Shown here: in pieces, positions 41,981 to 61,200 of the stretch
Position numbering within the stretch: the first letter of the stretch is position 1
Layout: each line of letters starts with the position of its first letter
NCBI RefSeq assembly: GCF_037042905.1
Contig: NC_087250.1
Location: 5,520,001 to 5,584,000 of the forward strand
DNA length: 64,000 nucleotides
Source of the DNA: Lytechinus pictus
Taxonomy: Eukaryota
Direction: 5' to 3'
Made by a program: the position numbers and the translations under genes
Notes under the pieces: generated by a model
The model's input: only the letters and a program-made list of their open reading frames with translations
Databases searched by the model: none
What the model was told of the DNA's origin: nothing

Positions 41981-43413
41981 TAAAGCGATTTTTATTTTAT
42001 TTTCGGCAAAACATTTTCTTTACTTCGCCACAGCCAACGCCGTTGCAGAATCTGCGTTGGCCGTGGCCGAATATAAAAAAGCCGCCGCCATCTTGAAAAT
42101 TTTAGGCTTTTTATTAATTTGAGCTGTTTGACTCTGTTTCGTCCATAATATTAAATAAAACAAAAAGTAACATATTATTTTAGTTTGAGATTTCATTTTT
42201 TGGTGGGAAAAGTTTGATTTTTAGTTCCGTAAATATACTCTATTTTTTTACCGATCGGCACTGCCGTGCTGGCCTTGAAGGAATTCAGTGGCTAGCTCGA
42301 CAGGAGCTAATCGGATTTTTTTGGACAAAACATTATACGTTGTACTATTTAGGGTAAATATCCACTCATTTTGTTGACCATATATTTAAATCTTCCCTCG
42401 TTAGGATATATTTTTGTGGCCACGGAGTGTGATTGACTTTGATGAAATTTTGATTGCGTTTGACTGTGTTTACTGATGTGGTGTGAATGGATTGCTGAAT
42501 ATTATTGATGTTGTGAGTTGATTATTTTATTACAAGCCTGAATTTGCTTTTCTCCTTTGACCGCCGCGCTGCTGCTGCTGCTGCTGTTGTTAGTATTTTT
42601 TTTGTAATTATATTTCTGGGTGTTTTTTGGAGAAAACACCAGACATTTGCTGCTGCTGCTGCTGCTGCTGTTAATTGTTAGGAATTTATTATTTTTGGTC
42701 ACGCGTCTCAGGAGATAATGAAATTCAGTCTTGTATTAATTATTGTGTTGTTGCTGCTGCTGCTGTATTGAATATTTTGCTGCTGTTGCTCTGCTGTTGT
42801 ATTGTTGCTGCTGCTGCTGTATTGAATATTTTGTTGTTTATTGCTGCTGCCGTTGTGTAATTGAATTGTTGCTGCTGCTGTTGTATAATATATTTTGTTG
42901 CTGGTGCTGCCGTTGATGTGAGCTGTGCTGCTGACATTTGTATTAAATTCATATTCAATCAATTAATTATAAATTGTATAATTAAATAAATTTTGTATAT
43001 ATTTAGATAAATTGTACTTGTAAATATTAACTTTTGTTCAAAAAACAGAAAAAAAATAAATAAATAATAATAATTTATTTATTTGAAATTATTTCTATAT
43101 ATTTTTCATATCTTTCTTTGAACAAGTGAGCGTTCGATTGTTTGCATTTTTTCTTTTCTTTCCTAAGAATTAAATCATACAGGAATTTTATTTTTTAGGA
43201 AAGTAGCCTCTGGATTTTAATTTGATTACATTCTCAGGATATTGTGAGGTTAGTTCTGTTAATTCTCTTTCATTTTTTTTTCAAAAAGTTAATTTTGTCC
43301 CAGATTTATTTTGATTTTATCCGCAAGACAAAGTAGTCTGCAGGATAATTTTTGGCTAATTACAGTTCAATTTTGGAATTTAATTTTTGTTACTGATTAA
43401 TTTCTACATCAAG

Positions 43414-44877: not shown

Positions 44878-44905
44878 AGACATCATCAAGTGGGCAGATA
44901 GGCTT

Positions 44906-45754
44906 ATGACCCTTGCAGGTCAGGCCTTTGTAGGCCTTCCCGACAAGTTCGTTCAAGAACTTGTAGTGGCAAGGTTCTGCCAAGGTGCCCAAGACAAAGA
45001 TGCAGGGCATCATGTCCTGACTTCTCGGCCTGGGACCTTAGATGAAGCCATGACTAAGTACAAATGGTTTCAGTTTACCCAGAAGACCATGCACACGCAT
45101 GGCCCTAGGTCGAGAAAAGAGGTAAGGCAGCTCTCGATGGGAGATGGCGATAGTGACCTAAGGGTGCAAAAGTTGTCTCCCCCAGAGGCTGCCAAGAAGG
45201 GAAATTCTAGCCTTGAGGCTAGACTAAGTGCTCTGGAAGCCCAAAATGCAGTATGGGCATCCAAGATGGATTCGATGGTCGCTGCGATCACGGATCTATC
45301 TAGAAGCACAAAGGAACTCTTGTCGGTGTCGGGAGGCCGGTCGAGGTACCCCTCAGGCCGTGCCCCTGTTACACCTGACAGGCAGAAATACACCTCCGGC
45401 CGAGTTCCTGGTACCCCGGACAGACCAAAGTATACCTATGGTCGGGCTCCAGGTACGCCAGACAGGCCGAGGTTTAACTCAAATTTGACACCAGATCGGT
45501 CAGTAGGAGGCCGAAGGCCATTTTTTGGCCCTTCGCCAACTACAACTGATCGTCAGCGAAACTTCACAGGCTGTTTCAACTGTGGGGAAGAAGGCCATTT
45601 CAGCAGGGCCTGCCCCATGGGAAGATCGCCTGTGAACAGTAGACAAGTAAGGGCTGTAACCTTCGAGGAGGAGGGAAATGGACAGGGATCGGCGGAGATG
45701 GGGAGTCCCCGATCCGATCAGAGATCCCCTCCCCCGCCATCCCCATTCCATTAA
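44906..45754 (+). CDS. gag: Gag C-terminal part with CCHC zinc knuckle, copy 1
   Basis: WADRLMTLAGQAF...RFCQG capsid-like segment; CFNCGEEGHFSRAC. Confidence 0.85.
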   Translation: MTLAGQAFVGLPDKFVQELVVARFCQGAQDKDAGHHVLTSRPGTLDEAMTKYKWFQFTQKTMHTHGPRSRKEVRQLSMGDGDSDLRVQKLSPPEAAKKGNSSLEARLSALEAQNAVWASKMDSMVAAITDLSRSTKELLSVSGGRSRYPSGRAPVTPDRQKYTSGRVPGTPDRPKYTYGRAPGTPDRPRFNSNLTPDRSVGGRRPFFGPSPTTTDRQRNFTGCFNCGEEGHFSRACPMGRSPVNSRQVRAVTFEEEGNGQGSAEMGSPRSDQRSPPPPSPFH

Positions 45755-45765
45755 AGGGCAGCCTA

Positions 45766-48700
45766 ATGCCACAAGACCAAGGGAACCAACGGGCACCGGA
45801 CTCACAAGCAAGCCCAGGGAGCCCGAAATTCTCTAAGGTAACTGAGCACCCTTGGAGGAACCCGCCATGGCCACCAGACATTTCTGGTGATGTTAAAGAT
45901 CAAGAGGTTGAAGAAGTCATTTGTAGAATTGTGTCTACTTCAACATTGAGTGTTGAGTTGGCAGTTAGCAAGGAGCCCATTACATCCGTTTTGGACACTG
46001 CGGCAGCTGTCACCATTATATCTGATAGGCTTTTCCATCGCCTCCAGCCTCGGCCGCCGATCCTTAAGCGTGTAGTTCTTAAGGGGGCTGGCCGAGACAT
46101 GACAATGGACGGCATTGTGATAGGACCTATCACGCTCCAGCTGGGTAACCAAATACTCAACGAGGAGATTCACGTAGCTCCGATAGCAGATGAGATGTTG
46201 TTTGGCGTTGATCTATTAAGAAAACACAATGCCAATATTAGCATTCCAAATGCTATCCTAACTTTGAACGGTGAAAACCTACCAATAATCCAACGCGAAG
46301 ATTCGGGGAGTACGGCAGAGGTGTGTGTAGATAAGGGCGTCTGTGTTCCTCCGTGTTCGGTTCGAAGGGTTAAGTGTTCGGTGGCACTTAATTCTAGCCC
46401 ATTCTTGGTGGAACCTTTGCCTTTCCTACCCATACCTGTTCTTATACCCCGGAGCCTTCATGAAAGTAAGAAAGATACAGAAGTTTTCCTGATAAATTCC
46501 TCTGATATGACCTACAAGTTACGAAGGGGTGATATGATTGGGAAAGCTTATCAAGTCTCGGTGATAGAACCTGAAATAGAACCCTCAGAGGATGTCACAG
46601 TTAGGAGTATTAACACTGTAAAAGCTTCGGACTCAGACATACCTCCTCACCTTCTGGACCTTTGGGGCCGCTCTAATGAGGGGCTGGCCCCAGAGGAACA
46701 GGAGGAGTTGAGAGGGCTGCTACTAAAATATCAATCAGTGTTCGCAAAAGATGAGTTTGACCTTGGTGGTTTCAACGAGGTAACTCATAGCATAGACACG
46801 GGTGATGCGAGGCCCATAAAACAAAAGATGAGGCGGACCCCCCTGAATTTCATTCAGGAGGAGCAGGCACATCTCGACAAGATGCTCGCCGCTGGAGTTA
46901 TCCAGCCGTCTATGTCTGAATGGGCATCGCCCCCTGTGTTAGTGAGGAAAAAAGATGGAGGAGTCCGATGGTGCATTGATTACCGCAAGTTAAACAATGT
47001 CACCAAAAAGGACGTCTACCCCTTACCATGTATTGAAGAATGCCTTGATATTTTAGCAGGCAACAAGTGGTTTTCCAAACTTGATGCCAACGCAGCTTAT
47101 TGGCAAATCAAGGTAAATGAAGCAGATAGGGACAAAACAGCCTTCGTTACAAAACATGGGCTGTATGAGTTCGTCCGCATGGGATTTGGCCTGTGCAATG
47201 CACCGGCCACCTTCCAACGTGTGATGAACTTAGTCCTGAGAGGTCTCACATGGGACGTGGCTCTTGCATTCTTGGATGATATCCTGGTATTGGGTAAATT
47301 ATTTCCAGACCACATCAAGAATCTAGGGGCAGTCCTGAGGCGTTTCAAGGACTACAGACTCAAATTGAAACCCAAGAAGTGTGCCTTGTTTCAACGAAAG
47401 GTGGAGTTCTTGGGTAGGGAAGTGGATGCTACAGGCTTGCATCTACCAGAGGAAAACATCCAAAGGGTAGTGGATTGGCCTACTCCTGCTTCCACTAAAG
47501 AAGTAGAGCAGTTCTTAGGGTTGGCCAACTATCACAGGGTGTTTATGAAAGATTATGCACGGGTGGCTGGGCCATTGTATGAGCTTACAGGCAATCATGC
47601 TTTCAGTTGGACAGAGTTTCATCAGGAGGCATTCGAACAAATCAAAGCTATATTAACCTCAGCCCCTGTGCTCACACTTCCAAACGCACATGACCCGTTC
47701 ATCCTAGATACGGATGCGTCTAGCACAGCGATTGGAGCAGAGCTGCTACAGGTTCAAAATGGTGAGGAGAAGGTCATAGCTTATGGCAGCTTGTCTCTTT
47801 CTCCTCAACAAAGGAACTATTGTGTCACTCGCCGCGAGCTCTTAGCGTTGGTGTTATTTTGCAGACAGTATAGGCATTACCTTTTAGGTAGGCCATTTAC
47901 TGTCAGAACGGATCATGGCAGCCTAACATGGCTGCTCAACTTCAAAACGCCGACAGGACAGCTGTCTCGCTGGCTGGAGGAGTTAGGGCAGTACAATATG
48001 AAAATCGAACACCGGCCCGGTAGGCGCCACTCTAATGCAGATTCTCTTTCGCGCATTCCTGATACAGAATCAGTGTGTGAAGGGTATGAGCATGGTGTGC
48101 GACTACAGGATTTGCCGTGTGGTGGGTGTTCATATTGTACCAAGAGACACAAAGAATGGGCACACTTTGTCGACTGTGTCGATGATGTTGTGCCATTAAG
48201 TCAAAGCCAAAGGGTCTCGAATGTGGCTGTTGAAGAAACTTTCCCTGTCACGCACATGGAAATATTGTTCAACAAGGCCAACTCATTTGAGATCCGAAGT
48301 ATCTCAGTTGACCCAACTGAGGTGGCAGAGGAACCGCCTTCTGACAATTTAGTCAAGCAAGAGCAAGAAAAAGACCAGGTTCTCGTGCCCCTCCGTGAGT
48401 GGTTAACCAACAAGAAAGAACTGGATGAAGGGACTCTGTTTCTCCTCCCGCCAGAGGGAAAGTTCTTGTGGACGAACAGAGAACTCTTCTACTTCAAAGA
48501 AGGAGTTATCTGGATGAAGAAGGATGTAGGTGATGTTATAGTGATTCCAGAATCACTACGGCATGACATCATTCGGCTGAATCATGACCCTCCTTCAGCA
48601 GGGCATGCTGGAATCAATCGCACTCGGGCTAAGCTAAAGTCCAAGTATTATTGGTATCGCATGTCAGAAGATATTCGCATTTACATAGCCAGGTGTACAA

Positions 48701-49074
48701 CTTGCAATCAGAACAAGAAAGCGACCCGCCCTGGGAGGCATCCTATGAAAAGTTTTCATGCGAGCGCCCCCATGGAACGTGTCCATCTTGACTTCATGGG
48801 CCCACTACCAAAGACAACAAATGGTAATGAAAACATCCTGGTTATGGTAGATCAATTTACCAAATGGGTGGAATGCGTACCTTTGCCTTCCCAAACCGCA
48901 GAGATGACAGCTCATGCAGCAGTGAGCAGTTTTTTCTGCCGGTTTGGATATCCATTTCAAATCTTCACGGATCAGGGCAGAAATTTTGAGAGTACACTTT
49001 TCAAGGACATGTGCCGTGTCCTTGATATTCACAAGTCAAAAACGACCGCATTCCGCCCCCAAGCAAAAAGTTGA
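45766..49074 (+). CDS. pol: Pol (protease-RT-RNase H-integrase), copy 1; frameshift near 49065, truncated at 49295
   Basis: VLDTAAAVTII; WCIDYRKLN; FLDDIL; TDASSTAIGA/TRRELLA/RTDHGSL; HDPPSAGH..CTTC; HLDFMGP; TDQGRNF; Gypsy domain order. Confidence 0.95.
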   Translation: MPQDQGNQRAPDSQASPGSPKFSKVTEHPWRNPPWPPDISGDVKDQEVEEVICRIVSTSTLSVELAVSKEPITSVLDTAAAVTIISDRLFHRLQPRPPILKRVVLKGAGRDMTMDGIVIGPITLQLGNQILNEEIHVAPIADEMLFGVDLLRKHNANISIPNAILTLNGENLPIIQREDSGSTAEVCVDKGVCVPPCSVRRVKCSVALNSSPFLVEPLPFLPIPVLIPRSLHESKKDTEVFLINSSDMTYKLRRGDMIGKAYQVSVIEPEIEPSEDVTVRSINTVKASDSDIPPHLLDLWGRSNEGLAPEEQEELRGLLLKYQSVFAKDEFDLGGFNEVTHSIDTGDARPIKQKMRRTPLNFIQEEQAHLDKMLAAGVIQPSMSEWASPPVLVRKKDGGVRWCIDYRKLNNVTKKDVYPLPCIEECLDILAGNKWFSKLDANAAYWQIKVNEADRDKTAFVTKHGLYEFVRMGFGLCNAPATFQRVMNLVLRGLTWDVALAFLDDILVLGKLFPDHIKNLGAVLRRFKDYRLKLKPKKCALFQRKVEFLGREVDATGLHLPEENIQRVVDWPTPASTKEVEQFLGLANYHRVFMKDYARVAGPLYELTGNHAFSWTEFHQEAFEQIKAILTSAPVLTLPNAHDPFILDTDASSTAIGAELLQVQNGEEKVIAYGSLSLSPQQRNYCVTRRELLALVLFCRQYRHYLLGRPFTVRTDHGSLTWLLNFKTPTGQLSRWLEELGQYNMKIEHRPGRRHSNADSLSRIPDTESVCEGYEHGVRLQDLPCGGCSYCTKRHKEWAHFVDCVDDVVPLSQSQRVSNVAVEETFPVTHMEILFNKANSFEIRSISVDPTEVAEEPPSDNLVKQEQEKDQVLVPLREWLTNKKELDEGTLFLLPPEGKFLWTNRELFYFKEGVIWMKKDVGDVIVIPESLRHDIIRLNHDPPSAGHAGINRTRAKLKSKYYWYRMSEDIRIYIARCTTCNQNKKATRPGRHPMKSFHASAPMERVHLDFMGPLPKTTNGNENILVMVDQFTKWVECVPLPSQTAEMTAHAAVSSFFCRFGYPFQIFTDQGRNFESTLFKDMCRVLDIHKSKTTAFRPQAKS

Positions 49075-49616
49075 GAGGGCGAATAGGACCGTGATGGATG
49101 CAGTGCGATGCTACGTCTCAAAGTCACAAAGGGACTGGGACAGGCATCTCCAGCAGATCGCAGGTGCTATTCGCTCCTCTGTAAATCGTACAACTGGATT
49201 TACCCCTAACAAGCTAATGCTGGGTCGGGAGGTTAATCTACCCTCTGATCTCGTATGCTCTGTTCCTCAACCCGCTCAAGAGCAGACCAAAGAAGGATTT
49301 ATTACCACACTTAGACCAGGGTTAACTTAAACCTTGCTATCGGAATACGAAACTTAAACCTAGGTTTAAATATGGCAGTTTATTACCACACTTAGACTAG
49401 GGTTAAGTTAAACCACGCTATCAGAATACGGGCCAGAGAGTTTTGTATACTTATTTCGTTCTACTGAAACATTACAGATAGTCGCTGATTATTCTAATTC
49501 TATAATAATAATAAAAAGTCACATTGCATGGTGAGATAGAGAAATAATTGGAAAGAATGATGGACGAGGGAAAGAGAGAGAGAGAGATAAAGAAATGGAG
49601 GGTGAGATAGAAAAGG

Positions 49617-49648
<32 letters not shown>

Positions 49649-50065
49649 AGATATGAAAAAAAAAGATTGAGGAAGAGGTCATAATACAGATCATAACAAA
49701 CAGATTGTCTTTTTATCTAGCATTCATGGATTCTCTCACACAACCTCTAAGTCTTCTGGGACGGGTATGGAAACAGTTCTCGGCTGCATGCCGTCACTAA
49801 TGTACTGAGAGACACCCCCTCCTTTGCGATTAGTACGGCATTTTGAGAAATGTAAGAATCCATCCACATTGAAAGAGTTTGCTGTATACGCTGTGAACCA
49901 TGTCTCGGTAATGGCGCACACTTCCAGTTTGTTTATTTGGATAAAAGTTTCAAATTCGTCAAACTTGTTCGATAGAGACCTGATATTAGACATGAAAATA
50001 CGGGGGAAATCTTATTTTTCATGTTTCACCTCTTTCTCATTTGTCACATGTAAGGGTGAGATGGA

Positions 50066-50326
50066 TATAGTGTAAGGGGGTTATAGTTAAGCAGACGACA
50101 TCATGCACCCAAGTGACACAAGTCACATGACACATCGGCGGGAGGAACCACAACACAATACAGTACACACGCCACTAAAACACTCCACTCCATACTCAAC
50201 CCCCGAGAGGTACAGACGTCCTGAGAGCTGTGCATAACAAGAATAAGGTAAGGCTTTCTCCCGGTGTATATTGTGTGTAAGTTATAGTGAGTGTATGATT
50301 ATTTATGTTATCGGCCCCCCTCTTTA
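50066..50326 (+). repeat. 5' LTR of the full-length element
   Basis: Matches 41706-41966; followed by the PBS. Confidence 0.93.
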
Positions 50327-51773
50327 CTGGCGACGAGGATTAAAGCGATTTTTATTTTATTTTCGGCAAAACATTTTCTTTACTTCGCCACAGCCAACGC
50401 CGTTGCAGAATCTGCGTTGGCCGTGGCCGAATATAAAAAAGCCGCCGCCATCTTGAAAATTTTAGGCTTTTTATTAATTTGAGCTGTTTGACTCTGTTTC
50501 GTCCATAATATTAAATAAAACAAAAAGTAACATATTATTTTAGTTTGAGATTTCATTTTTTGGTGGGAAAAGTTTGATTTTTAGTTCCGTAAATATACTC
50601 TATTTTTTTACCGATCGGCACTGCCGTGCTGGCCTTGAAGGAATTCAGTGGCTAGCTCGACAGGAGCTAATCGGATTTTTTTGGACAAAACATTATACGT
50701 TGTACTATTTAGGGTAAATATCCACTCATTTTGTTGACCATATATTTAAATCTTCCCTCGTTAGGATATATTTTTGTGGCCACGGAGTGTGATTGACTTT
50801 GATGAAATTTTGATTGCGTTTGACTGTGTTTACTGATGTGGTGTGAATGGATTGCTGAATATTATTGATGTTGTGAGTTGATTATTTTATTACAAGCCTG
50901 AATTTGCTTTTCTCCTTTGACCGCCGCGCTGCTGCTGCTGCTGCTGTTGTTAGTATTTTTTTTGTAATTATATTTCTGGGTGTTTTTTGGAGAAAACACC
51001 AGACATTTGCTGCTGCTGCTGCTGCTGCTGTTAATTGTTAGGAATTTATTATTTTTGGTCACGCGTCTCAGGAGATAATGAAATTCAGTCTTGTATTAAT
51101 TATTGTGTTGTTGCTGCTGCTGCTGTATTGAATATTTTGCTGCTGTTGCTCTGCTGTTGTATTGTTGCTGCTGCTGCTGTATTGAATATTTTGTTGTTTA
51201 TTGCTGCTGCCGTTGTGTAATTGAATTGTTGCTGCTGCTGTTGTATAATATATTTTGTTGCTGGTGCTGCCGTTGATGTGAGCTGTGCTGCTGACATTTG
51301 TATTAAATTCATATTCAATCAATTAATTATAAATTGTATAATTAAATAAATTTTGTATATATTTAGATAAATTGTACTTGTAAATATTAACTTTTGTTCA
51401 AAAAACAGAAAAAAAATAAATAAATAATAATAATTTATTTATTTGAAATTATTTCTATATATTTTTCATATCTTTCTTTGAACAAGTGAGCGTTCGATTG
51501 TTTGCATTTTTTCTTTTCTTTCCTAAGAATTAAATCATACAGGAATTTTATTTTTTAGGAAAGTAGCCTCTGGATTTTAATTTGATTACATTCTCAGGAT
51601 ATTGTGAGGTTAGTTCTGTTAATTCTCTTTCATTTTTTTTTCAAAAAGTTAATTTTGTCCCAGATTTATTTTGATTTTATCCGCAAGACAAAGTAGTCTG
51701 CAGGATAATTTTTGGCTAATTACAGTTCAATTTTGGAATTTAATTTTTGTTACTGATTAATTTCTACATCAAG

Positions 51774-53237
51774 ATGGCGAGCAACATACCAAGAATCAAA
51801 ATCAACTTGTGTTCGTCTGAGGAATTGATGAGTCTGCCCGGAGTGGGTATGGCCACCGCCAACCGCATTCTACATGCGAGGGAGGCGGCCGACCTTACTC
51901 CGGATACATTCTTGTCGATACCTCATATACCGAAGGCGGAACTGTTAGTTTACGCCTTTGATTATGAGCCAACAACAACGGCTCATAATGTGGACCGCAG
52001 AGAAGTGCGCTCCGAAGGAGACGAGCCTTCTACGAGCGTTCCACTTATTCCGTCTAAGGAGCCCCCCGTAAGCCAGGCGTTTGAGGCTTGGCCACAGCAC
52101 ACCCATGCACATAGCGCACAGGGTGCTGTAGGCCAATCTTCTCAGACACAGGCCGGGGAGGCCCCCTCATTTTTCACAGGGGGGAGGCCAGGTGGCGCTT
52201 TTACTCAGCAGCCTTCGGCCTCTCCAGAAGATAGGGCTAAGTCCCTCTGGGCTAATCAATTTGGGTTTTCAGGATGGAACGATGGTCTGTTCCCACCACA
52301 GGGTCCCCACCAAGTTACCCCACCAGGACCCCAGTTCCAATGTGGTCCTCGTGCCCAGGTAGCTACCCCACCAGGACCCCAGTTCCAATTTGGTCCTCAT
52401 GCCCAAGTAGATTTGCATGGTCAGGCTCCCGGTACTCAGGGTGGCCGACCAGCAATGTTCAATCAAACAACCCAGACACCTCCACATAGCTATCCACAGG
52501 CCGTTCCACACTTTACACAAGCACAGTACGAGGAAATGTATGGCGTGATGTTTAGGATGATGCAGATGATGCCATTCGGAGGAACTGGACAGCCAGCTCC
52601 TCCATACTGCAACCCTGCTGCCGCCTACGGTGGGTATTGCCCACCATGGGCTGGAGGCAGATATCCGCCACACTATCCTAACACTGTGGCCCCGCAAACC
52701 TCTCCCCAAGGACCATGTGACTTGCAATATGGGGGTAGCAACCCTGTGTATCAAGGCGCTGGACCTCAAGGAGATGGACATGGAGGCCCAGTATACAGTG
52801 AACATAGAAACACCACAAGGCCATCAGTAAGCCCTGGATACAGGGGGCTGTCAACAAGAAATCAGCCGCCCCGCGTCACCAGACTTACTTCGGCCTCAAG
52901 ACCTGTGGTACCGGAGTATGACGACAGAAGGCCCCCTTCTAGACCAACCTCTTTGCCGAAGACTATTTCGTTCGACGGCAAAGGAAGTTGGGCGGCCTTC
53001 TATTCAAAGTTCCAACTATACACCGAAAGACACGGCATGTCTGATGCAGACAAGAAATATCAGCTGTGTCTGGCGTTGGAGGCCGAAGCTAGTAAGTTCA
53101 TGGCTCTCATTCAGGAGAGCAACCCAAATATCGCCTTCTCTGACTTGGTTACCAAGTTGGAGAAGCGGTTCGCTCTCCAGGATAAAGCCGGAAGTTACTC
53201 GGATGCAATTTCAATAGGCTTTTCAACGCTCGGATGA
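51774..53237 (+). CDS. gag: Gag N-terminal part (HhH domain), copy 2; frameshifted near 53185
   Basis: Same translation as copy 1. Confidence 0.8.
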   Translation: MASNIPRIKINLCSSEELMSLPGVGMATANRILHAREAADLTPDTFLSIPHIPKAELLVYAFDYEPTTTAHNVDRREVRSEGDEPSTSVPLIPSKEPPVSQAFEAWPQHTHAHSAQGAVGQSSQTQAGEAPSFFTGGRPGGAFTQQPSASPEDRAKSLWANQFGFSGWNDGLFPPQGPHQVTPPGPQFQCGPRAQVATPPGPQFQFGPHAQVDLHGQAPGTQGGRPAMFNQTTQTPPHSYPQAVPHFTQAQYEEMYGVMFRMMQMMPFGGTGQPAPPYCNPAAAYGGYCPPWAGGRYPPHYPNTVAPQTSPQGPCDLQYGGSNPVYQGAGPQGDGHGGPVYSEHRNTTRPSVSPGYRGLSTRNQPPRVTRLTSASRPVVPEYDDRRPPSRPTSLPKTISFDGKGSWAAFYSKFQLYTERHGMSDADKKYQLCLALEAEASKFMALIQESNPNIAFSDLVTKLEKRFALQDKAGSYSDAISIGFSTLG

Positions 53238-53265
53238 AGACATCATCAAGTGGGCAGATAGGCTT

Positions 53266-54114
53266 ATGACCCTTGCAGGTCAGGCCTTTGTAGGCCTTCC
53301 CGACAAGTTCGTTCAAGAACTTGTAGTGGCAAGGTTCTGCCAAGGTGCCCAAGACAAAGATGCAGGGCATCATGTCCTGACTTCTCGGCCTGGGACCTTA
53401 GATGAAGCCATGACTAAGTACAAATGGTTTCAGTTTACCCAGAAGACCATGCACACGCATGGCCCTAGGTCGAGAAAAGAGGTAAGGCAGCTCTCGATGG
53501 GAGATGGCGATAGTGACCTAAGGGTGCAAAAGTTGTCTCCCCCAGAGGCTGCCAAGAAGGGAAATTCTAGCCTTGAGGCTAGACTAAGTGCTCTGGAAGC
53601 CCAAAATGCAGTATGGGCATCCAAGATGGATTCGATGGTCGCTGCGATCACGGATCTATCTAGAAGCACAAAGGAACTCTTGTCGGTGTCGGGAGGCCGG
53701 TCGAGGTACCCCTCAGGCCGTGCCCCTGTTACACCTGACAGGCAGAAATACACCTCCGGCCGAGTTCCTGGTACCCCGGACAGACCAAAGTATACCTATG
53801 GTCGGGCTCCAGGTACGCCAGACAGGCCGAGGTTTAACTCAAATTTGACACCAGATCGGTCAGTAGGAGGCCGAAGGCCATTTTTTGGCCCTTCGCCAAC
53901 TACAACTGATCGTCAGCGAAACTTCACAGGCTGTTTCAACTGTGGGGAAGAAGGCCATTTCAGCAGGGCCTGCCCCATGGGAAGATCGCCTGTGAACAGT
54001 AGACAAGTAAGGGCTGTAACCTTCGAGGAGGAGGGAAATGGACAGGGATCGGCGGAGATGGGGAGTCCCCGATCCGATCAGAGATCCCCTCCCCCGCCAT
54101 CCCCATTCCATTAA
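53266..54114 (+). CDS. gag: Gag C-terminal part with CCHC knuckle, copy 2
   Basis: CFNCGEEGHFSRAC. Confidence 0.85.
   Translation: MTLAGQAFVGLPDKFVQELVVARFCQGAQDKDAGHHVLTSRPGTLDEAMTKYKWFQFTQKTMHTHGPRSRKEVRQLSMGDGDSDLRVQKLSPPEAAKKGNSSLEARLSALEAQNAVWASKMDSMVAAITDLSRSTKELLSVSGGRSRYPSGRAPVTPDRQKYTSGRVPGTPDRPKYTYGRAPGTPDRPRFNSNLTPDRSVGGRRPFFGPSPTTTDRQRNFTGCFNCGEEGHFSRACPMGRSPVNSRQVRAVTFEEEGNGQGSAEMGSPRSDQRSPPPPSPFH
54033..54106 (+). promoter_or_regulatory. Predicted -1 ribosomal frameshift signal (also 45673-45746)
   Basis: G GGA AAT heptamer in the gag frame; pol frame is -1 and open from 54003; 7-bp stem GGATCGG/CCGATCC starts 6 nt downstream. Confidence 0.65.
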
Positions 54115-54125
54115 AGGGCAGCCTA

Positions 54126-57100
54126 ATGCCACAAGACCAAGGGAACCAACGGGCACCGGACTCACAAGCAAGCCCAGGGAGCCCGAAATTCTCTAAGGTA
54201 ACTGAGCACCCTTGGAGGAACCCGCCATGGCCACCAGACATTTCTGGTGATGTTAAAGATCAAGAGGTTGAAGAAGTCATTTGTAGAATTGTGTCTACTT
54301 CAACATTGAGTGTTGAGTTGGCAGTTAGCAAGGAGCCCATTACATCCGTTTTGGACACTGCGGCAGCTGTCACCATTATATCTGATAGGCTTTTCCATCG
54401 CCTCCAGCCTCGGCCGCCGATCCTTAAGCGTGTAGTTCTTAAGGGGGCTGGCCGAGACATGACAATGGACGGCATTGTGATAGGACCTATCACGCTCCAG
54501 CTGGGTAACCAAATACTCAACGAGGAGATTCACGTAGCTCCGATAGCAGATGAGATGTTGTTTGGCGTTGATCTATTAAGAAAACACAATGCCAATATTA
54601 GCATTCCAAATGCTATCCTAACTTTGAACGGTGAAAACCTACCAATAATCCAACGCGAAGATTCGGGGAGTACGGCAGAGGTGTGTGTAGATAAGGGCGT
54701 CTGTGTTCCTCCGTGTTCAGTTCGAAGGGTTAAGTGTTCGGTGGCACTTAATTCTAGCCCATTCTTGGTGGAACCTTTGCCTTTCCTACCCATACCTGTT
54801 CTTATACCCCGGAGCCTTCATGAAAGTAAGAAAGATACAGAAGTTTTCCTGATAAATTCCTCTGATATGACCTACAAGTTACGAAGGGGTGATATGATTG
54901 GGAAAGCTTATCAAGTCTCGGTGATAGAACCTGAAATAGAACCCTCAGAGGATGTCACAGTTAGGAGTATTAACACTGTAAAAGCTTCGGACTCAGACAT
55001 ACCTCCTCACCTTCTGGACCTTTGGGGCCGCTCTAATGAGGGGCTGGCCCCAGAGGAACAGGAGGAGTTGAGAGGGCTGCTACTAAAATATCAATCAGTG
55101 TTCGCAAAAGATGAGTTTGACCTTGGTGGTTTCAACGAGGTAACTCATAGCATAGACACGGGTGATGCGAGGCCCATAAAACAAAAGATGAGGCGGACCC
55201 CCCTGAATTTCATTCAGGAGGAGCAGGCACATCTCGACAAGATGCTCGCCGCTGGAGTTATCCAGCCGTCTATGTCTGAATGGGCATCGCCCCCTGTGTT
55301 AGTGAGGAAAAAAGATGGAGGAGTCCGATGGTGCATTGATTACCGCAAGTTAAACAATGTCACCAAAAAGGACGTCTACCCCTTACCATGTATTGAAGAA
55401 TGCCTTGATATTTTAGCAGGCAACAAGTGGTTTTCCAAACTTGATGCCAACGCAGCTTATTGGCAAATCAAGGTAAATGAAGCAGATAGGGACAAAACAG
55501 CCTTCGTTACAAAACATGGGCTGTATGAGTTCGTCCGCATGGGATTTGGCCTGTGCAATGCACCGGCCACCTTCCAACGTGTGATGAACTTAGTCCTGAG
55601 AGGTCTCACATGGGACGTGGCTCTTGCATTCTTGGATGATATCCTGGTATTGGGTAAATTATTTCCAGACCACATCAAGAATCTAGGGGCAGTCCTGAGG
55701 CGTTTCAAGGACTACAGACTCAAATTGAAACCCAAGAAGTGTGCCTTGTTTCAACGAAAGGTGGAGTTCTTGGGTAGGGAAGTGGATGCTACAGGCTTGC
55801 ATCTACCAGAGGAAAACATCCAAAGGGTAGTGGATTGGCCTACTCCTGCTTCCACTAAAGAAGTAGAGCAGTTCTTAGGGTTGGCCAACTATCACAGGGT
55901 GTTTATGAAAGATTATGCACGGGTGGCTGGGCCATTGTATGAGCTTACAGGCAATCATGCTTTCAGTTGGACAGAGTTTCATCAGGAGGCATTCGAACAA
56001 ATCAAAGCTATATTAACCTCAGCCCCTGTGCTCACACTTCCAAACGCACATGACCCGTTCATCCTAGATACGGATGCGTCTAGCACAGCGATTGGAGCAG
56101 AGCTGCTACAGGTTCAAAATGGTGAGGAGAAGGTCATAGCTTATGGCAGCTTGTCTCTTTCTCCTCAACAAAGGAACTATTGTGTCACTCGCCGCGAGCT
56201 CTTAGCGTTGGTGTTATTTTGCAGACAGTATAGGCATTACCTTTTAGGTAGGCCATTTACTGTCAGAACGGATCATGGCAGCCTAACATGGCTGCTCAAC
56301 TTCAAAACGCCGACAGGACAGCTGTCTCGCTGGCTGGAGGAGTTAGGGCAGTACAATATGAAAATCGAACACCGGCCCGGTAGGCGCCACTCTAATGCAG
56401 ATTCTCTTTCGCGCATTCCTGATACAGAATCAGTGTGTGAAGGGTATGAGCATGGTGTGCGACTACAGGATTTGCCGTGTGGTGGGTGTTCATATTGTAC
56501 CAAGAGACACAAAGAATGGGCACACTTTGTCGACTGTGTCGATGATGTTGTGCCATTAAGTCAAAGCCAAAGGGTCTCGAATGTGGCTGTTGAAGAAACT
56601 TTCCCTGTCACGCACATGGAAATATTGTTCAACAAGGCCAACTCATTTGAGATCCGAAGTATCTCAGTTGACCCAACTGAGGTGGCAGAGGAACCGCCTT
56701 CTGACAATTTAGTCAAGCAAGAGCAAGAAAAAGACCAGGTTCTCGTGCCCCTCCGTGAGTGGTTAACCAACAAGAAAGAACTGGATGAAGGGACTCTGTT
56801 TCTCCTCCCGCCAGAGGGAAAGTTCTTGTGGACGAACAGAGAACTCTTCTACTTCAAAGAAGGAGTTATCTGGATGAAGAAGGATGTAGGTGATGTTATA
56901 GTGATTCCAGAATCACTACGGCATGACATCATTCGGCTGAATCATGACCCTCCTTCAGCAGGGCATGCTGGAATCAATCGCACTCGGGCTAAGCTAAAGT
57001 CCAAGTATTATTGGTATCGCATGTCAGAAGATATTCGCATTTACATAGCCAGGTGTACAACTTGCAATCAGAACAAGAAAGCGACCCGCCCTGGGAGGCA

Positions 57101-57434
57101 TCCTATGAAAAGTTTTCATGCGAGCGCCCCCATGGAACGTGTCCATCTTGACTTCATGGGCCCACTACCAAAGACAACAAATGGTAATGAAAACATCCTG
57201 GTTATGGTAGATCAATTTACCAAATGGGTGGAATGCGTACCTTTGCCTTCCCAAACCGCAGAGATGACAGCTCATGCAGCAGTGAGCAGTTTTTTCTGCC
57301 GGTTTGGATATCCATTTCAAATCTTCACGGATCAGGGCAGAAATTTTGAGAGTACACTTTTCAAGGACATGTGCCGTGTCCTTGATATTCACAAGTCAAA
57401 AACGACCGCATTCCGCCCCCAAGCAAAAAGTTGA
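54126..57434 (+). CDS. pol: Pol (PR-RT-RNase H-integrase N-terminus and core), copy 2
   Basis: Same motifs as copy 1. Confidence 0.95.
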   Translation: MPQDQGNQRAPDSQASPGSPKFSKVTEHPWRNPPWPPDISGDVKDQEVEEVICRIVSTSTLSVELAVSKEPITSVLDTAAAVTIISDRLFHRLQPRPPILKRVVLKGAGRDMTMDGIVIGPITLQLGNQILNEEIHVAPIADEMLFGVDLLRKHNANISIPNAILTLNGENLPIIQREDSGSTAEVCVDKGVCVPPCSVRRVKCSVALNSSPFLVEPLPFLPIPVLIPRSLHESKKDTEVFLINSSDMTYKLRRGDMIGKAYQVSVIEPEIEPSEDVTVRSINTVKASDSDIPPHLLDLWGRSNEGLAPEEQEELRGLLLKYQSVFAKDEFDLGGFNEVTHSIDTGDARPIKQKMRRTPLNFIQEEQAHLDKMLAAGVIQPSMSEWASPPVLVRKKDGGVRWCIDYRKLNNVTKKDVYPLPCIEECLDILAGNKWFSKLDANAAYWQIKVNEADRDKTAFVTKHGLYEFVRMGFGLCNAPATFQRVMNLVLRGLTWDVALAFLDDILVLGKLFPDHIKNLGAVLRRFKDYRLKLKPKKCALFQRKVEFLGREVDATGLHLPEENIQRVVDWPTPASTKEVEQFLGLANYHRVFMKDYARVAGPLYELTGNHAFSWTEFHQEAFEQIKAILTSAPVLTLPNAHDPFILDTDASSTAIGAELLQVQNGEEKVIAYGSLSLSPQQRNYCVTRRELLALVLFCRQYRHYLLGRPFTVRTDHGSLTWLLNFKTPTGQLSRWLEELGQYNMKIEHRPGRRHSNADSLSRIPDTESVCEGYEHGVRLQDLPCGGCSYCTKRHKEWAHFVDCVDDVVPLSQSQRVSNVAVEETFPVTHMEILFNKANSFEIRSISVDPTEVAEEPPSDNLVKQEQEKDQVLVPLREWLTNKKELDEGTLFLLPPEGKFLWTNRELFYFKEGVIWMKKDVGDVIVIPESLRHDIIRLNHDPPSAGHAGINRTRAKLKSKYYWYRMSEDIRIYIARCTTCNQNKKATRPGRHPMKSFHASAPMERVHLDFMGPLPKTTNGNENILVMVDQFTKWVECVPLPSQTAEMTAHAAVSSFFCRFGYPFQIFTDQGRNFESTLFKDMCRVLDIHKSKTTAFRPQAKS

Positions 57435-58155
57435 GAGGGCGAATAGGACCGTGATGGATGCAGTGCGATGCTACGTCTCAAAGTCACAAAGGGACTGGGA
57501 CAGGCATCTCCAGCAGATCGCAGGTGCTATTCGCTCCTCTGTAAATCGTACAACTGGATTTACCCCTAACAAGCTAATGCTGGGTCGGGAGGTTAATCTA
57601 CCCTCTGATCTCGTATTCTCTGTTCCTCAACCCGCTCAAGAGCAGACCAAAGAAGAATATGTGGCCGAGTTGACTTGTGCAATGCGTAATGCTCATATTT
57701 CAGCTAGGGCTGCAATCAAATCTGCTCAGCGCAAGATGAAACGAGACTACGATATCAAACAATACACTCGGGAATTCGAGGTAAATGATCGTGTCTACAT
57801 TAGAGACACGGCCTGTGCCAAGGGGAAATCTCGTAAGTTAAACCCCCCTTGGAAAGGGCCGGCGATCATCGTAGAGAAGAGGTCCCCATATCTTTACAGA
57901 GTGGCCTTCAGAAAAACAATAGCCACTTACAATCACGACCGCTTGAAAAAGTGTACGGATCAGAGTAAGGCGGTTATTGAGACTCCTGGCAAAGACAAAC
58001 TATATTGTTTTTGCCGGAAGGCTGATGATGGCTCTCTGATGATATGTTGCGACGAATGCAATGAATGGTACCACGGAGCGTGCGTTGGTATCACAGAGAC
58101 GGAAGGATTAGAAAACGTGAAATGGTTTTGCCCCCCCTGTACTAAGAGGAGGTAG
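57427..58155 (+). CDS. pol: Integrase C-terminal part after the frameshift: catalytic Glu, GPY/F-like motif, PHD finger
   Basis: KVERANRT; PPWKGPAII; LYCFCRKADDGSLMICCDECNEWYHGACVGI...WFCPPC (C4HC3). Confidence 0.9.
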   Translation, partial: KVERANRTVMDAVRCYVSKSQRDWDRHLQQIAGAIRSSVNRTTGFTPNKLMLGREVNLPSDLVFSVPQPAQEQTKEEYVAELTCAMRNAHISARAAIKSAQRKMKRDYDIKQYTREFEVNDRVYIRDTACAKGKSRKLNPPWKGPAIIVEKRSPYLYRVAFRKTIATYNHDRLKKCTDQSKAVIETPGKDKLYCFCRKADDGSLMICCDECNEWYHGACVGITETEGLENVKWFCPPCTKRR

Positions 58156-58198
58156 AATATTTAGAAACAAATGTGTCGTCTATTATTATGCATGTACT

Positions 58199-59587
58199 AT
58201 GATAAGTCGTCTAATAACCACGTTTATATTTCTTTTCCTTCCCCAAATTCTCTCCCCCTCCCCCCATTTGTGCATCATTCTTCTCTTCCCATACAGAGAG
58301 AAAAAGGAGAGAGAGGAAATCCTGCTACCACCGGGGGTGGAGTTAAACGACATAGAGGTAGACGTTGGTTCGGCCCCAGAGGAGGCCCTTCCTGAGCCCC
58401 CCTCTGAAGCCGAACCAACAAAAATTGAATGTATGCAGCAGGCCTCGGAGACCCGTTCCGAAAATCCGCCTCCTGCACCAGCAGGGGCAGATGCTCGGAA
58501 GAAAGAGTTCTCTGAGGCCGAGCTTGCTAAAAAAAAACGTGAGCTTAATAGGCGTAGAAAAGAACGGGCCAAGCGTGCCAAAAAGACAAAAAAGCTGGCG
58601 CAAGACCCGCTTCCGGGAACAAATGCCGGTCCCTCGACCAGTGGAGGCCTTACGGTTGGGGTTGGTCGTGGCCGTGGACTACTGTCCACTTGGCCTAGAC
58701 CACCCCATCCAGTGGAGTGTTCCTCCATTGGAAGAGGGCGGGGAATCACCCCAAAAATGTTAGAGGAAGCTTTGGAGGAGAGCCCACGGCCACTGCGTGC
58801 ATTCGATGCACACTTTCATCCCGATCGCATAAAAATAAGAAAAGGAAAAACTGAACTTCAGGGACAGCCTCTACACCCGGTCGAGGTAGTCGGAGGGGTA
58901 TGGAACTTCTGTGATCCAGTAAGATACTCCGCCCCCGGCTTCCTCGACAGGGTATTCGAGGAACTCCCTGAAGGCTACGCAGTGGCGGTGGGCATCCACC
59001 CGAAGCAGGCCTATGGCCTGAAGCGTTACTATCTTGAGGCGCTGCGATCGGCTCTCGCCGACCCGAGAGTCAGAGGCCTGTCGGAGTTGGGCCTCGATTG
59101 GTCCACGGATGACTCCGAGTGGGGGGCACAGGAGCAGCTTTTTGAGCAGCTCCTAGGGCTCTCCACCGGAAGAGTCCTGGTACTCCATCTCCGGGGGGCC
59201 AATGGCTCTCGTCCCGGCAATGAGCCGATCCCTCGTGCTGTGCACAAGCTGGCGCGCGACGCGATTCGCCGACGGTGTCCGGCCGCTCAGCGCATCCATT
59301 TGCACTGTTTCATGGGTTCGCCGGACATCGTCGACGAATGGACGTCAGCGTTCCGTTATGCGTACTTTGGTGTCACGGGCAGTGCCTCTTACTACAATGG
59401 AGCGAATGCCAAGCTTAAGAGGCTTGGCATTCGGTCCATTCCAGGAAATCGTCTCCTGATCGAGACAGACGCCCCCTACCTGCCCGTCCGCCCTCGCCAC
59501 GGCTGGCAAACAGAAGCCTTTATCGGCGATGTCGGGCAGGTGGTGGCGTCTATCCGAGGGGTTCCTCTACCAGAGTTACTCGATTAA
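58199..59587 (+). CDS. tatD: ORF3: TatD-family metal-dependent nuclease preceded by an acidic/Pro-rich segment and a basic NLS-like segment; true start uncertain
   Basis: FDAHFHPD, VGIHP, LSELGLD, LVLHLR, IHLHCFMG, FGVTG and LLIETDAPYL occur in TatD order (family-level call). Confidence 0.9.
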   Translation: MISRLITTFIFLFLPQILSPSPHLCIILLFPYREKKEREEILLPPGVELNDIEVDVGSAPEEALPEPPSEAEPTKIECMQQASETRSENPPPAPAGADARKKEFSEAELAKKKRELNRRRKERAKRAKKTKKLAQDPLPGTNAGPSTSGGLTVGVGRGRGLLSTWPRPPHPVECSSIGRGRGITPKMLEEALEESPRPLRAFDAHFHPDRIKIRKGKTELQGQPLHPVEVVGGVWNFCDPVRYSAPGFLDRVFEELPEGYAVAVGIHPKQAYGLKRYYLEALRSALADPRVRGLSELGLDWSTDDSEWGAQEQLFEQLLGLSTGRVLVLHLRGANGSRPGNEPIPRAVHKLARDAIRRRCPAAQRIHLHCFMGSPDIVDEWTSAFRYAYFGVTGSASYYNGANAKLKRLGIRSIPGNRLLIETDAPYLPVRPRHGWQTEAFIGDVGQVVASIRGVPLPELLD

Positions 59588-60331
59588 CGCCAGGGAGCTG
59601 TATTGCCTCAAATAAAGGGGCAATGCTGCTCCCTTGCACCTGTCTCTGCCTTTTACCTTAATTGTAAGGCTATTTTATATACAAAAGTTGTATTTTATAT
59701 GTGTTTATTATGCTTTATATATGTCATACAGAAAATGGACGCCTATGAGTTACAATTCTTATTATATATACTAGTTATGCTTTTTGTTGAAATTGGAAAA
59801 TCAGATAAGCAACAATATTTTATATATATATGTATGTATTCATTGATTTAAAAATTTGTTTATTTTTACTTAGGTACATAGCAGTGAGCTTATTTAATTT
59901 ATGTCAAGGCAGAGACAAGGTAAGAATATTTTTTACAATTGGTAATGATGTACAATGTATATATTTATGTATTTGTGTTATATTTATGTTTATGAACATA
60001 AAGAAAAGAAAATGATCACAAAAAAAGAAAATAAAAAGATCACAGAAGAAGATGAAGAAAAAAAAAGAAGGACAAAAAGATCAAAGATAAAGAAAAGAAA
60101 AAGATTACAAAAGAAGAAAATAAATATTACAGAAAGAAAAAAGAGATCAAAGAATACAAGAAAAAAGAAAGAAAAGATATGCTTGAGAAAAAAAAAAAAA
60201 AATAAATGAAAAATAAATGTATGTTGATGTATATTTTATGTTAGGTTAAGTTGAGTTATACCTTACGTTAAGAATGTTAAATATATTAAGTTATGTTAAG
60301 TTGTATTGGAAATAGGCCCCCCAATTTTTTT

Positions 60332-60345
60332 AGGGTGGGGGGGAG
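60332..60345 (+). promoter_or_regulatory. Polypurine tract
   Basis: AGGGTGGGGGGGAG immediately before the 3' LTR. Confidence 0.85.
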
Positions 60346-60606
60346 TATAGTGTAAGGGGGTTATAGTTAAGCAGACGACATCATGCACCCAAGCGACACA
60401 AGTCACATGACACATCGGCGGGAGGAACCACAACACAATACAGTACACACGCCACTAAAACACTCCACTCCATACTCAACCCCAGAGAGGTACAGACGTC
60501 CTGAGAGCTGTGCATAACAAGAATAAGGTAAGGCTTTCTCCCGGTGTATATTGTGTGTAAGTTATAGTGAGTGTATGATTATTTATGTTATCGGCCCCCC
60601 TCTTTA
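60346..60606 (+). repeat. 3' LTR
   Basis: 261 bp; differs from the 5' LTR at aagTgacaca/aagCgacaca and cccCgagagg/cccAgagagg. Confidence 0.93.
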
Positions 60607-61200
60607 TGGATATCAAGTTCGATCGATCAATAGATGATCTATTTTGGGAGAGATCTCTTAGTCCATCGTTTCGATAATTTACGCGAACGGGTATTTTCGC
60701 AGTTTACGAGAGCCCCCTCTGCATCCTCGAGTTCTTGTAATCCCGTACTGATTAGCAACCAAATTCGTTTGTGACGGCAACGGCACCTTTTGTTTGTTAC
60801 GTAACCTATAAAGGTCATTCCCTGAGTACGTGAGGCGCCGAGGTAAGTCTATTGTCCGTTGCTCGATTAGAGTGGTCATTTTATCATCAATGACCAAACG
60901 ATCTTCTTCCAAGTTCAAAGCCGTTTGAGAAGATAATACTCTTCGGTTTAACACACTGCAAACAGGTATACGTGGTAACAACACAAATGAAAAGCATCCA
61001 GAGTTTCATGAAACTTGAAAATACAACAACAGCCATAGTTCAATATTGCACAAAAGTCAGTTCATAATTATCACAGATTCACATGCAACGAGACTTACTA
61101 GTACTTGAAAGAATCACTTTTCTTAGTCGTCTACGAAAGAAGAGAAATTTCAGCAACACAAATTGCTCTCTGCGCTAGGGAAACAGCGCCCTCAGTTTGT
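60607..61200 (-). mobile_element. 5' portion of the LINE split by the Gypsy element (outer end approximate)
   Basis: RTRGCRGG basic motif; the empty-site join reads ...DRSNLISISPLH...(one stop)...DFPRIFMSNIRS in one frame. Confidence 0.55.

Follow-up and report, generated by a model that had tools for sequence, protein, structure and literature searches.

A Ty3/gypsy integrase of Lytechinus pictus that ends in a PHD finger of the predicted H3K4me3-reading class

How does a retroelement choose the place where it lands? The answer is understood for only a few systems, such as the chromodomains that serve elements bound for heterochromatin. Others borrow a tether from the host: retroviruses use LEDGF and the BET proteins, and Ty1 and Ty3 use factors of RNA polymerase III. 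A stretch of 64,000 nucleotides from Lytechinus pictus (assembly GCF_037042905.1, contig NC_087250.1, positions 5,520,001 to 5,584,000 of the forward strand; this whole stretch is called the window, and positions are counted from its first letter) raises the question anew. It contains a long-terminal-repeat (LTR) retrotransposon of the Ty3/gypsy group, 10,541 bp long (50066-60606), and at the very end of its integrase, where chromoviruses carry a chromodomain, lies what looks like a PHD finger. A sequence-only reading of this DNA proposed that the finger might steer integration towards active chromatin methylated at lysine 4 of histone H3 (H3K4). Is the finger real, what would it read, and would it guide insertion?

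The first of these questions has a firm answer. Translated with the standard code, nucleotides 57286-58155 of the forward strand give the C-terminal part of the integrase, ending in GKDKLYCFCRKADDGSLMICCDECNEWYHGACVGITETEGLENVKWFCPPCTKRR / LYCFCRKADDGSLMICCDECNEWYHGACVGITETEGLENVKWFCPPCTKRR and then the stop codon of pol (58153-58155). The final 50 residues of the protein are the finger (58003-58140, forward strand, as delimited by translation, Pfam, PDB matches, structural model and alignment), and the frame stops three residues past its last cysteine. All eight zinc ligands are there in the cross-brace order of a C4HC3 finger (C241, C243, C255, C258, H263, C266, C282 and C285 in the numbering of protein P0001), spaced as C-x-C-x11-C-x2-C-x4-H-x2-C-x15-C-x2-C, the third of them being the second cysteine of the motif ICCDEC. 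The sequence-only reading had described a complete finger of this spacing between 58000 and 58140, and the translation agrees with it: Leu239 begins at 58000 and the last cysteine ends at 58140. The three residues it had picked out as an aromatic cage are likewise all in place: Tyr240 (58003-58005), Met252 (58039-58041) and Trp261 (58066-58068). The Pfam search that it had suggested as a check returns PF00628 (PHD) at residues 241-285, with the model covered from position 1 to 47 of 47, an E value of 1.2e-11 and 44.9 bits against a cut-off of 24. An intact sibling copy of the element scores 41.1 bits. Compared by phmmer with the sequences of the PDB, the 55-residue tail has, at E <= 0.01, matches to 104 distinct sequences, and the closest of these scores 4.5e-15. 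Together, the Pfam match and the PDB matches exclude a chance pattern of cysteines.

What precedes the finger is just as telling of its place. The C-terminal region of the integrase (57427-58002, forward strand, from translation, Pfam and model) consists of a helical part, an SH3-like module of the GPY/F type at about 57793-57954, and a flexible linker. The module reads WKGPAIIV, where GPA replaces the GPY or GPF of its relatives, and Pfam SH3_Tf2-1 matches it weakly (residues 170-223, E 0.009). Some 17 residues, modelled with low confidence, link it to the finger. The last 102 residues were modelled by AlphaFold2 from an alignment of 30 natural sequences; the model has a mean predicted local distance difference test score (pLDDT) of 81, with 78-88 over the blocks of the finger and 58 over residues 41-50, the linker. 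The SH3-like part comes out three-stranded, with strands at model residues 7-29. Foldseek compares this model with the PDB and finds 20 matches at E <= 0.001, every one a PHD finger. The crystal structures among them superpose with root-mean-square deviations of 1.0-1.5 Å (1.0-1.4 Å for the top ones) over 50-57 columns at 40-45% identity, and TAF3 reaches 56-58% identity over 42-43 columns. Many of the top entries have titles that name complexes with H3 trimethylated at lysine 4 (H3K4me3). A genuine PHD finger, then, stands behind a GPY/F-like module, at the position that chromoviruses give to a chromodomain.

One qualification is needed to the statement that the integrase ends in this finger. 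It holds for the sibling copies of the element, in which protease (PR), reverse transcriptase (RT), RNase H (RH), integrase (IN) and PHD finger follow one another in a single frame of 1385 aa, the finger at residues 1337-1381. It does not hold unbroken for the copy in the window, where a +1 frame break within the integrase (57420-57434, forward strand) lies upstream of the finger: the open reading frame (ORF) 54003-57434 stops there, and the ORF 57286-58155 carries the integrase on.

What would such a finger read? PHD fingers that recognize H3K4me3 are described as doing so through a cage formed by between two and four aromatic residues, with an invariant Trp that separates the pocket for Lys4me3 from the pocket for Arg2, together with acidic contacts to Arg2 and capture of Ala1 by the backbone (PMC3241642). 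A Met on the cage's back face is reported to be conserved, and its loss abolishes the binding of DIDO1 and of TAF3; at the fourth cage position DIDO1 has His, TAF3 Asp (PMC8246079). According to the same article, BPTF has a tyrosine (Tyr23, Y23) at the position of the Met, which corrects one detail of the sequence-only reading, where a Met before the third zinc ligand had been counted among the cage features of BPTF (PMC8246079).

Held against this background, the finger of the window falls squarely in one class. Its best phmmer matches in the PDB are Drosophila Pps (5wle/5wlf, 4.5e-15), DIDO1 (4l7x, 4.1e-14) and Cfp1 (9c0o), followed by TAF3, BPTF, PHF2, ING4, KDM7, PHF8 and Spp1, and each of its closest solved relatives, whether judged on sequence or on predicted fold, reads H3K4me3 (Pps, DIDO1, Cfp1, TAF3, BPTF, PHF2). 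W261 is the invariant Trp two residues before the His. In the phmmer alignments Y240, directly before the first cysteine, faces a Tyr in DIDO1 and a Trp in Pps; M252 is paired with the Met in the FMICCD of DIDO1; and an Asp of the PDDG loop (the motif DDG) aligns with the loop His of DIDO1. D256 and E260 supply the acidic residues at the Arg2 pocket, the residues that would touch Arg2 being predicted by analogy with the structures of ING2 and BPTF. The type that the sequence-only reading had proposed is borne out by the sequence, by the predicted fold and by every signature residue that the literature names. By every sequence criterion checked the finger is of the H3K4me3/me2-reading type, and I think it probable, with good confidence, that it binds these marks. 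Which host finger was its donor, if there was one, cannot be told from some 50 residues.

If the cage matters to the element, it should have been kept. It has been, over 42 representatives made up of 34 database clusters and eight families from the Lytechinus pictus genome. The residue before the first cysteine is Tyr or Phe in 40 of them (Tyr in 34, Phe in 6), the Met is found in 38 and the Trp in 41. The sequence-only reading would have given up its idea had the cage been lost from most family members; the opposite is seen. Even of the two that miss the Tyr, one (P0108) is a misregistered match to the pattern, and the Tyr is there by eye. At the Arg2 pocket, the residue after the third zinc ligand is Asp in 33/42 (with Glu in two more), and the residue before the Trp is acidic in 35/42. 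The loop position of the fourth wall is freer: Asp in 25/34, and otherwise Tyr, Trp, Glu or His. Across 30 aligned rows, whose mean column identity is 23%, the sole invariant columns are those of the eight zinc ligands and of the cage Trp.

The genome tells the same story at the level of copies. A DNA search of the assembly finds six copies of the family to which the window element belongs, five of which keep every zinc ligand; two ligands are gone from one old copy (L005/L011). With the last 102 residues as query, a protein search of the genome gives 60 matches at E <= 0.001. Among these, the best 36 span almost all of the query and are 44-100% identical to it; 17 matches lie in open Pol frames of 1385-1469 aa. 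The 30 loci that were fetched form eight families, 45-57% identical to the window in the C-terminal region, with an intact finger in at least 26 of the 30. Compared pairwise among the eight families, the finger differs at 0.12-0.34 of its non-synonymous sites and at 0.6-1.2 of its synonymous sites, the latter saturated, which is the pattern of the neighbouring SH3-like domain as well. Because of that saturation the comparison is given as non-synonymous against synonymous differences (pN against pS) and not as a proper dN/dS between families. The finger is almost certainly a real integrase domain, held by purifying selection.

Nor is it confined to one genome. When 1.84 billion representative proteins are searched exhaustively by phmmer, 137 match below 1e-30. 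The strict finger pattern occurs in 34 of the best 150, and in three more of the best 150 the finger is cut, altered in its spacing, or ING-like. The end of the finger lies 0-17 residues from the end of the protein in 30/34. Among eight Pols from other assemblies that are labelled as containing a PHD finger, seven of them longer than 1260 aa, PF00628 falls within 1-7 residues of the C-terminus in seven, and seven show the order PR-RT-RH-IN-PHD by Pfam, P0037 being the exception. When the integrase C-terminal region, minus the finger, is placed in a quick maximum-likelihood tree (179 columns, midpoint root), 23 of the 26 PHD-bearing rows fall into one clade, supported by a Shimodaira-Hasegawa-like approximate likelihood ratio test value (SH-aLRT) of 95. 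That clade also includes 14 truncated rows and four rows that lack the finger. Its sister group has 74 rows, 57 of them without a PHD finger and two with, and one further PHD row pairs with an ING-like row elsewhere in the tree. In the protein Atlas, an 80-member cluster bears the name 'Integrase zinc binding/PHD-finger/Integrase core domain-containing protein', and Mollusca is its commonest recorded phylum; the architecture is already visible in automatic annotation. Because the finger is kept across families, across proteins and across a clade of the tree, it is best seen as an old trait of the lineage, possibly one gained more than once.

Three related Pols bear on the last point. One of them, P0117, ends in an ING-like PHD finger with a different spacing, and two PHD-bearing Pols, P0023 and P0028, are nested in the PHD-less clade. 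These are hints of repeated gain or exchange of the finger. The PHD-less sister integrases finish in another manner: an acidic stretch is followed by a basic motif that is short and conserved, [ST]R-x-GR-x2-K-x-P-x2-L-x-DY, seen in P0038, P0049, P0074, P0091, P0099, P0100, P0116, P0134, P0136, P0137, P0142, P0143 and P0034. That end resembles the arginine-anchor peptides with which CENP-C and LANA hold the acidic patch of the nucleosome, and it might offer, from this position, another way of tethering to chromatin.

I propose that the finger is a reader of the N-terminal tail of H3, of the class that binds H3K4me3/me2, and that it guides the integrase. Residues 1-6 of H3 would pair with it as a third beta strand. 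The pocket for methylated Lys4 would be walled by the Tyr before the first zinc ligand, the Met three residues before the third and the Trp two before the His, and an Asp of the conserved PDDG loop would make a fourth wall. Arg2 would be held between the Asp that follows the third ligand and the Glu that precedes the Trp. Because the finger belongs to the integrase, the intasome with its new complementary DNA (cDNA) would be tethered through it to H3K4-methylated nucleosomes; and as H3K4me3 nucleosomes are those of the 5' ends of active genes, insertions would be biased to these. This would parallel the action of the chromodomain at H3K9-methylated heterochromatin. I lean towards this chain as a whole, from reader to tether to biased insertion, and that the finger biases insertion is a step I infer with less assurance than the binding of H3K4me3/me2 itself.

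Several observations weigh against the proposal. P0037 retains its zinc ligands with a cage of Ile, Val and Lys, and it fails Pfam at 1e-5. The four finger-less rows of the PHD clade have long tails, which could be errors of gene models or true losses, and the tree itself is a quick search on 179 columns with a midpoint root. As for insertion sites, the median ratio of observed to expected CpG is 0.74 in the 18 flanks of nine insertions and 0.76 in 32 tiles of the window, a crude proxy against a single-window background that is too weak to argue either way. Around the window insertion the DNA is rich in AT (35% GC) and poor in ORFs, and no convincing gene domain was found among the six ORFs of at least 110 aa outside the element in the window. 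The nine target duplications share no motif, and the sign of Ty3-like targeting to tRNA genes is absent, with 0 tRNA genes near 28 LTR loci.

These last facts, the ordinary composition of the flanks, the lack of a common motif or of nearby tRNA genes and the gene-poor look of the surrounding DNA, would all suit a finger that binds the H3 tail as a general chromatin anchor, holding the preintegration complex or aiding strand transfer on nucleosomes with no concentration at H3K4me3. I consider this unlikely. The residues kept most strictly in the 42 representatives, the Trp, the Met and the Tyr or Phe, are those that confer specificity for methyl-lysine, and a non-specific anchor has no need of a cage. 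Readers of unmethylated lysine 4 (H3K4me0) are described as having no cage and an acidic cluster ahead of the first cysteine (PMC3241642), whereas here the six positions before the Tyr hold 0-1 acidic residues in 28/42. Perhaps, instead, the finger binds a protein other than a histone, one with an H3-like N-terminus or some other partner, and recruits a host factor to the integrase or the particle. Crystal structures exist in which the PHD finger of PHF2 is joined by VRK1's N-terminal peptide (7m10, 8f8y), and mimicry of the H3 N-terminus has been described as an interaction network (PMC8166343). Ligands of that kind use the H3K4me3 pocket, however, so that histone reading would remain compatible with them; no candidate partner is known, and a finger kept over families and assemblies fits the invariant H3 tail better than it fits a protein peculiar to one lineage. 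The idea is improbable.

It is very improbable, too, that the finger acts after integration or apart from it, by engaging H3K4me3 at the element's own promoter or by competing with host readers, in aid of transcription or of escape from silencing. Pol proteins are made in small amounts and are enclosed in particles, which makes them poor regulators of chromatin. Roles in 'chromatin remodeling' or 'restructuring' have been proposed for PHD fingers of transposons (bioRxiv 10.1101/2022.06.16.496473; PMC8557442), and the finger of Chlamydomonas Gypsy-7a_cRei is placed between RNase H and integrase (bioRxiv 10.1101/2022.06.16.496473). In the present lineage, in contrast, the finger always closes the integrase, at its very C-terminus and after a flexible linker, the position from which the chromodomain tethers chromoviruses (Gao et al. 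2008, via PMC6673714). Finally, one might take the finger for no working part at all, a captured host exon, a chimera of annotation or a decaying relic, given that the window copy is broken in gag and pol and that the old copy L005/L011 has lost two zinc ligands. This is scarcely credible, and the evidence refutes it: the finger is in frame in long open Pol frames at 17 places in the genome, it lies inside LTRs with target duplications, it recurs in eight families that have diverged from one another and, in other assemblies, in a clade with good support, and its pN is far below its pS. That the finger reads methylated H3K4 on behalf of the integrase remains the account I prefer.

The value of the proposal lies partly in how readily it can be tested. 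The finger is an autonomous domain of 50 residues for which textbook mutants exist, and at least eight families with young insertions are available in the genome of what appears to be a sea urchin used in laboratories. The PHD-less sister lineages, seen in other assemblies, could serve as controls if they are present in this genome too. Should the proposal be true, an integrase with its own reader of the H3K4me3 type would be a self-contained, promoter-directed counterpart to the systems now understood, and a natural template for tools that insert DNA under the guidance of chromatin.

The rest of the element is what one expects of the Ty3/gypsy group: LTRs, a target-site duplication, a primer-binding site, a polypurine tract, a gag with a CCHC knuckle and a pol in the order PR-RT-RH-IN. 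All of its features lie on the forward strand. The target-site duplication TGGA (50062-50065, with its 3' copy at 60607-60610) is a 4-bp direct repeat of the kind that flanks 9/9 LTR pairs examined. The 5' LTR (50066-50326; repeat family D3/D2) has 261 bp, reads TATAG...CTTTA and takes its boundaries from the LTR pairs of nine copies, fixed in 9/9 by the 4-bp duplications; the 3' LTR (60346-60606), defined by repeat analysis and by the LTR pairs, is 99% identical to it. In these nine copies the ends of the LTRs are a start in TATAG or TATGG (50066-50070) and an end in CTTTA (50322-50326), not the usual TG...CA. One base past the 5' LTR comes a sequence like a primer-binding site, TGGCGACGAGGATTAAAGC (TGGCGACGAGG), at 50328-50346. 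Its first 17 bases (TGGCGACGAGGATTAAA) are identical in 9/9 copies and its last two differ in 2/9. The polypurine tract, AGGGTGGGGGGGAG (60332-60345), is near-identical in 9/9.

Between these ends, gag (51744-54114) comprises a helix-hairpin-helix (HhH) motif, a PNMA-like capsid region and the CCHC knuckle, split over the frames 51744-53237 and 53218-54114. The HhH motif, at the N-terminus of Gag (51744-51890; PF12836/PF00633, E about 5e-6), is an unusual thing to find there; the PNMA-like capsid region has E 1.6e-6. The first frame of pol (54003-57434) encodes protease, reverse transcriptase, RNase H, the H2C2 zinc-binding part of the integrase and its catalytic core, as judged by Pfam (RVT_1 3.6e-30, RT_RNaseH_2 1.1e-31, Integrase_H2C2 2.6e-19, rve 8.5e-11). 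The window copy is damaged, with gag in two frames, the +1 break in pol, and a third frame that lacks the start codon of the sibling. The sibling copy has single frames for a gag of 786 aa with the same domains, a pol of 1385 aa and a third gene of 501 aa. The two LTRs of a pair are 97.4-100% identical, the 4-bp target duplications are clean in 9/9, and the lineage has been recently active.

Over 461 bases, the DNA for integrase and PHD finger in the siblings L046-L049 agrees with the window at 100%, and their LTRs are only 83-88% identical to 50069-50328. Identical coding DNA beside diverged LTRs implies separate histories, through recombination between subfamilies or fast turnover of LTRs. 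Other relatives are short: L074 (G000:C8:11649100-11655450) and further LTR pairs like it, with a spacing of about 6.1-6.2 kb, have related LTRs and an open gag of 775 aa, and have lost most of pol, the finger and the third gene. Several of these LTR pairs are 99-100% identical. These short relatives have the look of young derivatives that carry gag only, are non-autonomous and are presumably moved in trans.

The window also holds a tandem duplication of 8360 bp, whose first unit (40934-49295, forward strand, by blastn) consists of a 772-bp flank (40934-41705), an LTR and 7.3 kb of element. By blastn, 40934-49295 is 99.976% identical to 49294-57655 over 8362 bp. Three LTRs, two gag copies, one PHD finger and one third gene result, the finger being single because the duplicated unit stops inside the integrase, ahead of it. 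The 772 bp before the 5' LTR (49294-50065) were considered as diverged element sequence, part of a recombinant array, and this was rejected, for they are unrelated to the element. As the duplicated flank is not element DNA, the structure is not an LTR-LTR recombinant; either the segment was duplicated very recently or the structure is an artefact of assembly. Elsewhere in the window, at 10677-14521, lies a large, near-perfect inverted repeat with arms of up to 682 nt at 100% identity, partly composed of 31-nt tandem units and unrelated to the element.

Behind the finger there is a second accessory function that needs explaining. The third frame (58121-59587, forward strand) encodes a metal-dependent hydrolase of the TatD family, its domain at about 58802-59578. 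Pfam PF01026 scores 95.1 bits in the window against a cut-off of 27 (E 5.9e-27), and 103.9 bits in the sibling copy (E 1.2e-29, model positions 1-252 of 253). The frame contains the HxH-type motif DAHFH and the motif ETDAPY, both putatively metal-binding. It follows the finger in sibling copies at 98.6-98.8% identity over 488 codons, and three other PHD families of the genome have it too, at about 40% identity, which makes four of the eight families checked. TatD-like motifs also close P0087, a Pol of another assembly. The nr database has a protein 99% identical to this third gene under Lytechinus pictus. More distant relatives bear oyster names, and one is a sea-slug 'Pol polyprotein' with RT and TatD domains; the non-animal matches come next, bacterial TatD proteins at about 30-35% identity. 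What can be said of host range rests on these few named TatD matches and on the summary of the Atlas cluster. Public annotation treats the gene as one of the host, 'YabD-like' or 'TATDN2', and no account of TatD in LTR elements was found in the literature searched. Set beside the TatD/YabD family (PF01026), it shares the full-length Pfam match and the putative metal-binding motifs, and differs in sitting behind pol in an LTR retrotransposon and in its long basic N-terminal extension.

How might such a gene be expressed? The 5' LTR contains a sequence like a splice donor, AAG|GTAAGG (50245-50253; the exon would end at 50247), that is kept in 11 diverged LTR copies. Just past pol there is a pyrimidine tract with CAG that resembles a splice acceptor (58280-58296, forward strand; the exon would begin at 58297). 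Families A, B and C all have such a tract with CAG right after the pol stop, and the ATG of the frame 0-10 nt further on (0-7 in B and C). One contig of run X1, a library only guessed to be RNA, joins an LTR leader ending at the donor directly to the window from 58295 onwards, and 27 loose letters of this contig match the LTR of another copy exactly. The depth of X1 is 100-127 over the TatD region and 11-15 over most of pol. One contig and comparative sequence, then, suggest that TatD is expressed from a spliced subgenomic mRNA, in the manner of env. About 6% of each of three raw RNA-seq runs from the same species placed 34, 10 and 57 reads, on both strands and scattered, which is uninformative on expression of pol or the finger. 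In those three runs there are reads that match just the 36-base pyrimidine-rich stretch at 58269-58304, with unrelated flanks. Because they diverge on either side of it, a similar short stretch in some other transcript is their likely source.

A wider picture can be drawn from these parts, and I offer it as a speculation that I rather doubt will hold in full. The lineage might be a euchromatic mirror of the chromoviruses, in which a TAF3/DIDO-type finger would direct copies to H3K4me3 promoters and TatD, a nuclease of bacterial type made from spliced RNA, would possibly trim the element's own cDNA or remove the surplus. Removal of surplus cDNA would, if it occurs, avert DNA sensing by the host. 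The lineage in question is the one seen in a sea-urchin-like genome and in protein clusters rich in molluscs.

Is there a precedent for such a design? A search of the literature found no animal Ty3/gypsy integrase that ends in a PHD finger; Repbase reports, subscription journals and supplements lay outside it, and Repbase may describe such families. One candidate precedent, PMC5890265, was set aside, as neither 'PHD' nor 'chromodomain' occurs in its main text. PHD fingers have been reported in other transposons: CR1-like non-LTR elements, REM1 and Gypsy-7a_cRei of Chlamydomonas, Penelope-like Chlamys elements and the DNA transposons named Rehavkus (PMC6673714; bioRxiv 10.1101/2022.06.16.496473; PMC8557442). 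The likeness is that of an encoded finger suspected of acting on chromatin or on the choice of insertion site, and Gypsy-7a_cRei is reported to insert between genes 2.6 times as often as expected (bioRxiv 10.1101/2022.06.16.496473). The position differs. The finger of Gypsy-7a_cRei precedes the integrase (bioRxiv 10.1101/2022.06.16.496473) and that of Chlamys lies inside the RT or the endonuclease (PMC8557442), unlike the C-terminal finger here.

With the host fingers of Pps, DIDO1, TAF3, Cfp1/Spp1, BPTF and PHF2/PHF8/KDM7 the element's finger has in common its C4HC3 spacing, its Trp, its Met, its N-terminal aromatic residue and its acidic contacts for Arg2. Those fingers belong to proteins of transcription and chromatin, and their binding has been measured, whereas that of the element sits at the C-terminus of an integrase and is a predicted reader.

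The closest comparison is with the chromoviruses, in which, reportedly, the chromodomain steers integration into heterochromatin (Gao et al. 2008, cited in PMC6673714). Targeting has been demonstrated for chromodomains and is predicted for the finger. No chromo-family Pfam match was found in the Pol pieces of the window (E <= 0.01), in the sibling Pol (E <= 0.001) or in 12 related Pols (E <= 1e-5). The element is chromovirus-like in its layout, yet it is not a chromovirus. Both are of the same class of element, and both place a reader of histone methyl-lysine behind a GPY/F/SH3-like module, as a trait of the lineage. They differ in the reader, a zinc-bound PHD fold in place of a chromo barrel, and in the mark, predicted here to be the H3K4me3 of active promoters and not methylated H3K9. 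This animal Ty3/gypsy lineage shares the layout of the chromoviruses, with a different reader and, by prediction, the opposite target in chromatin.

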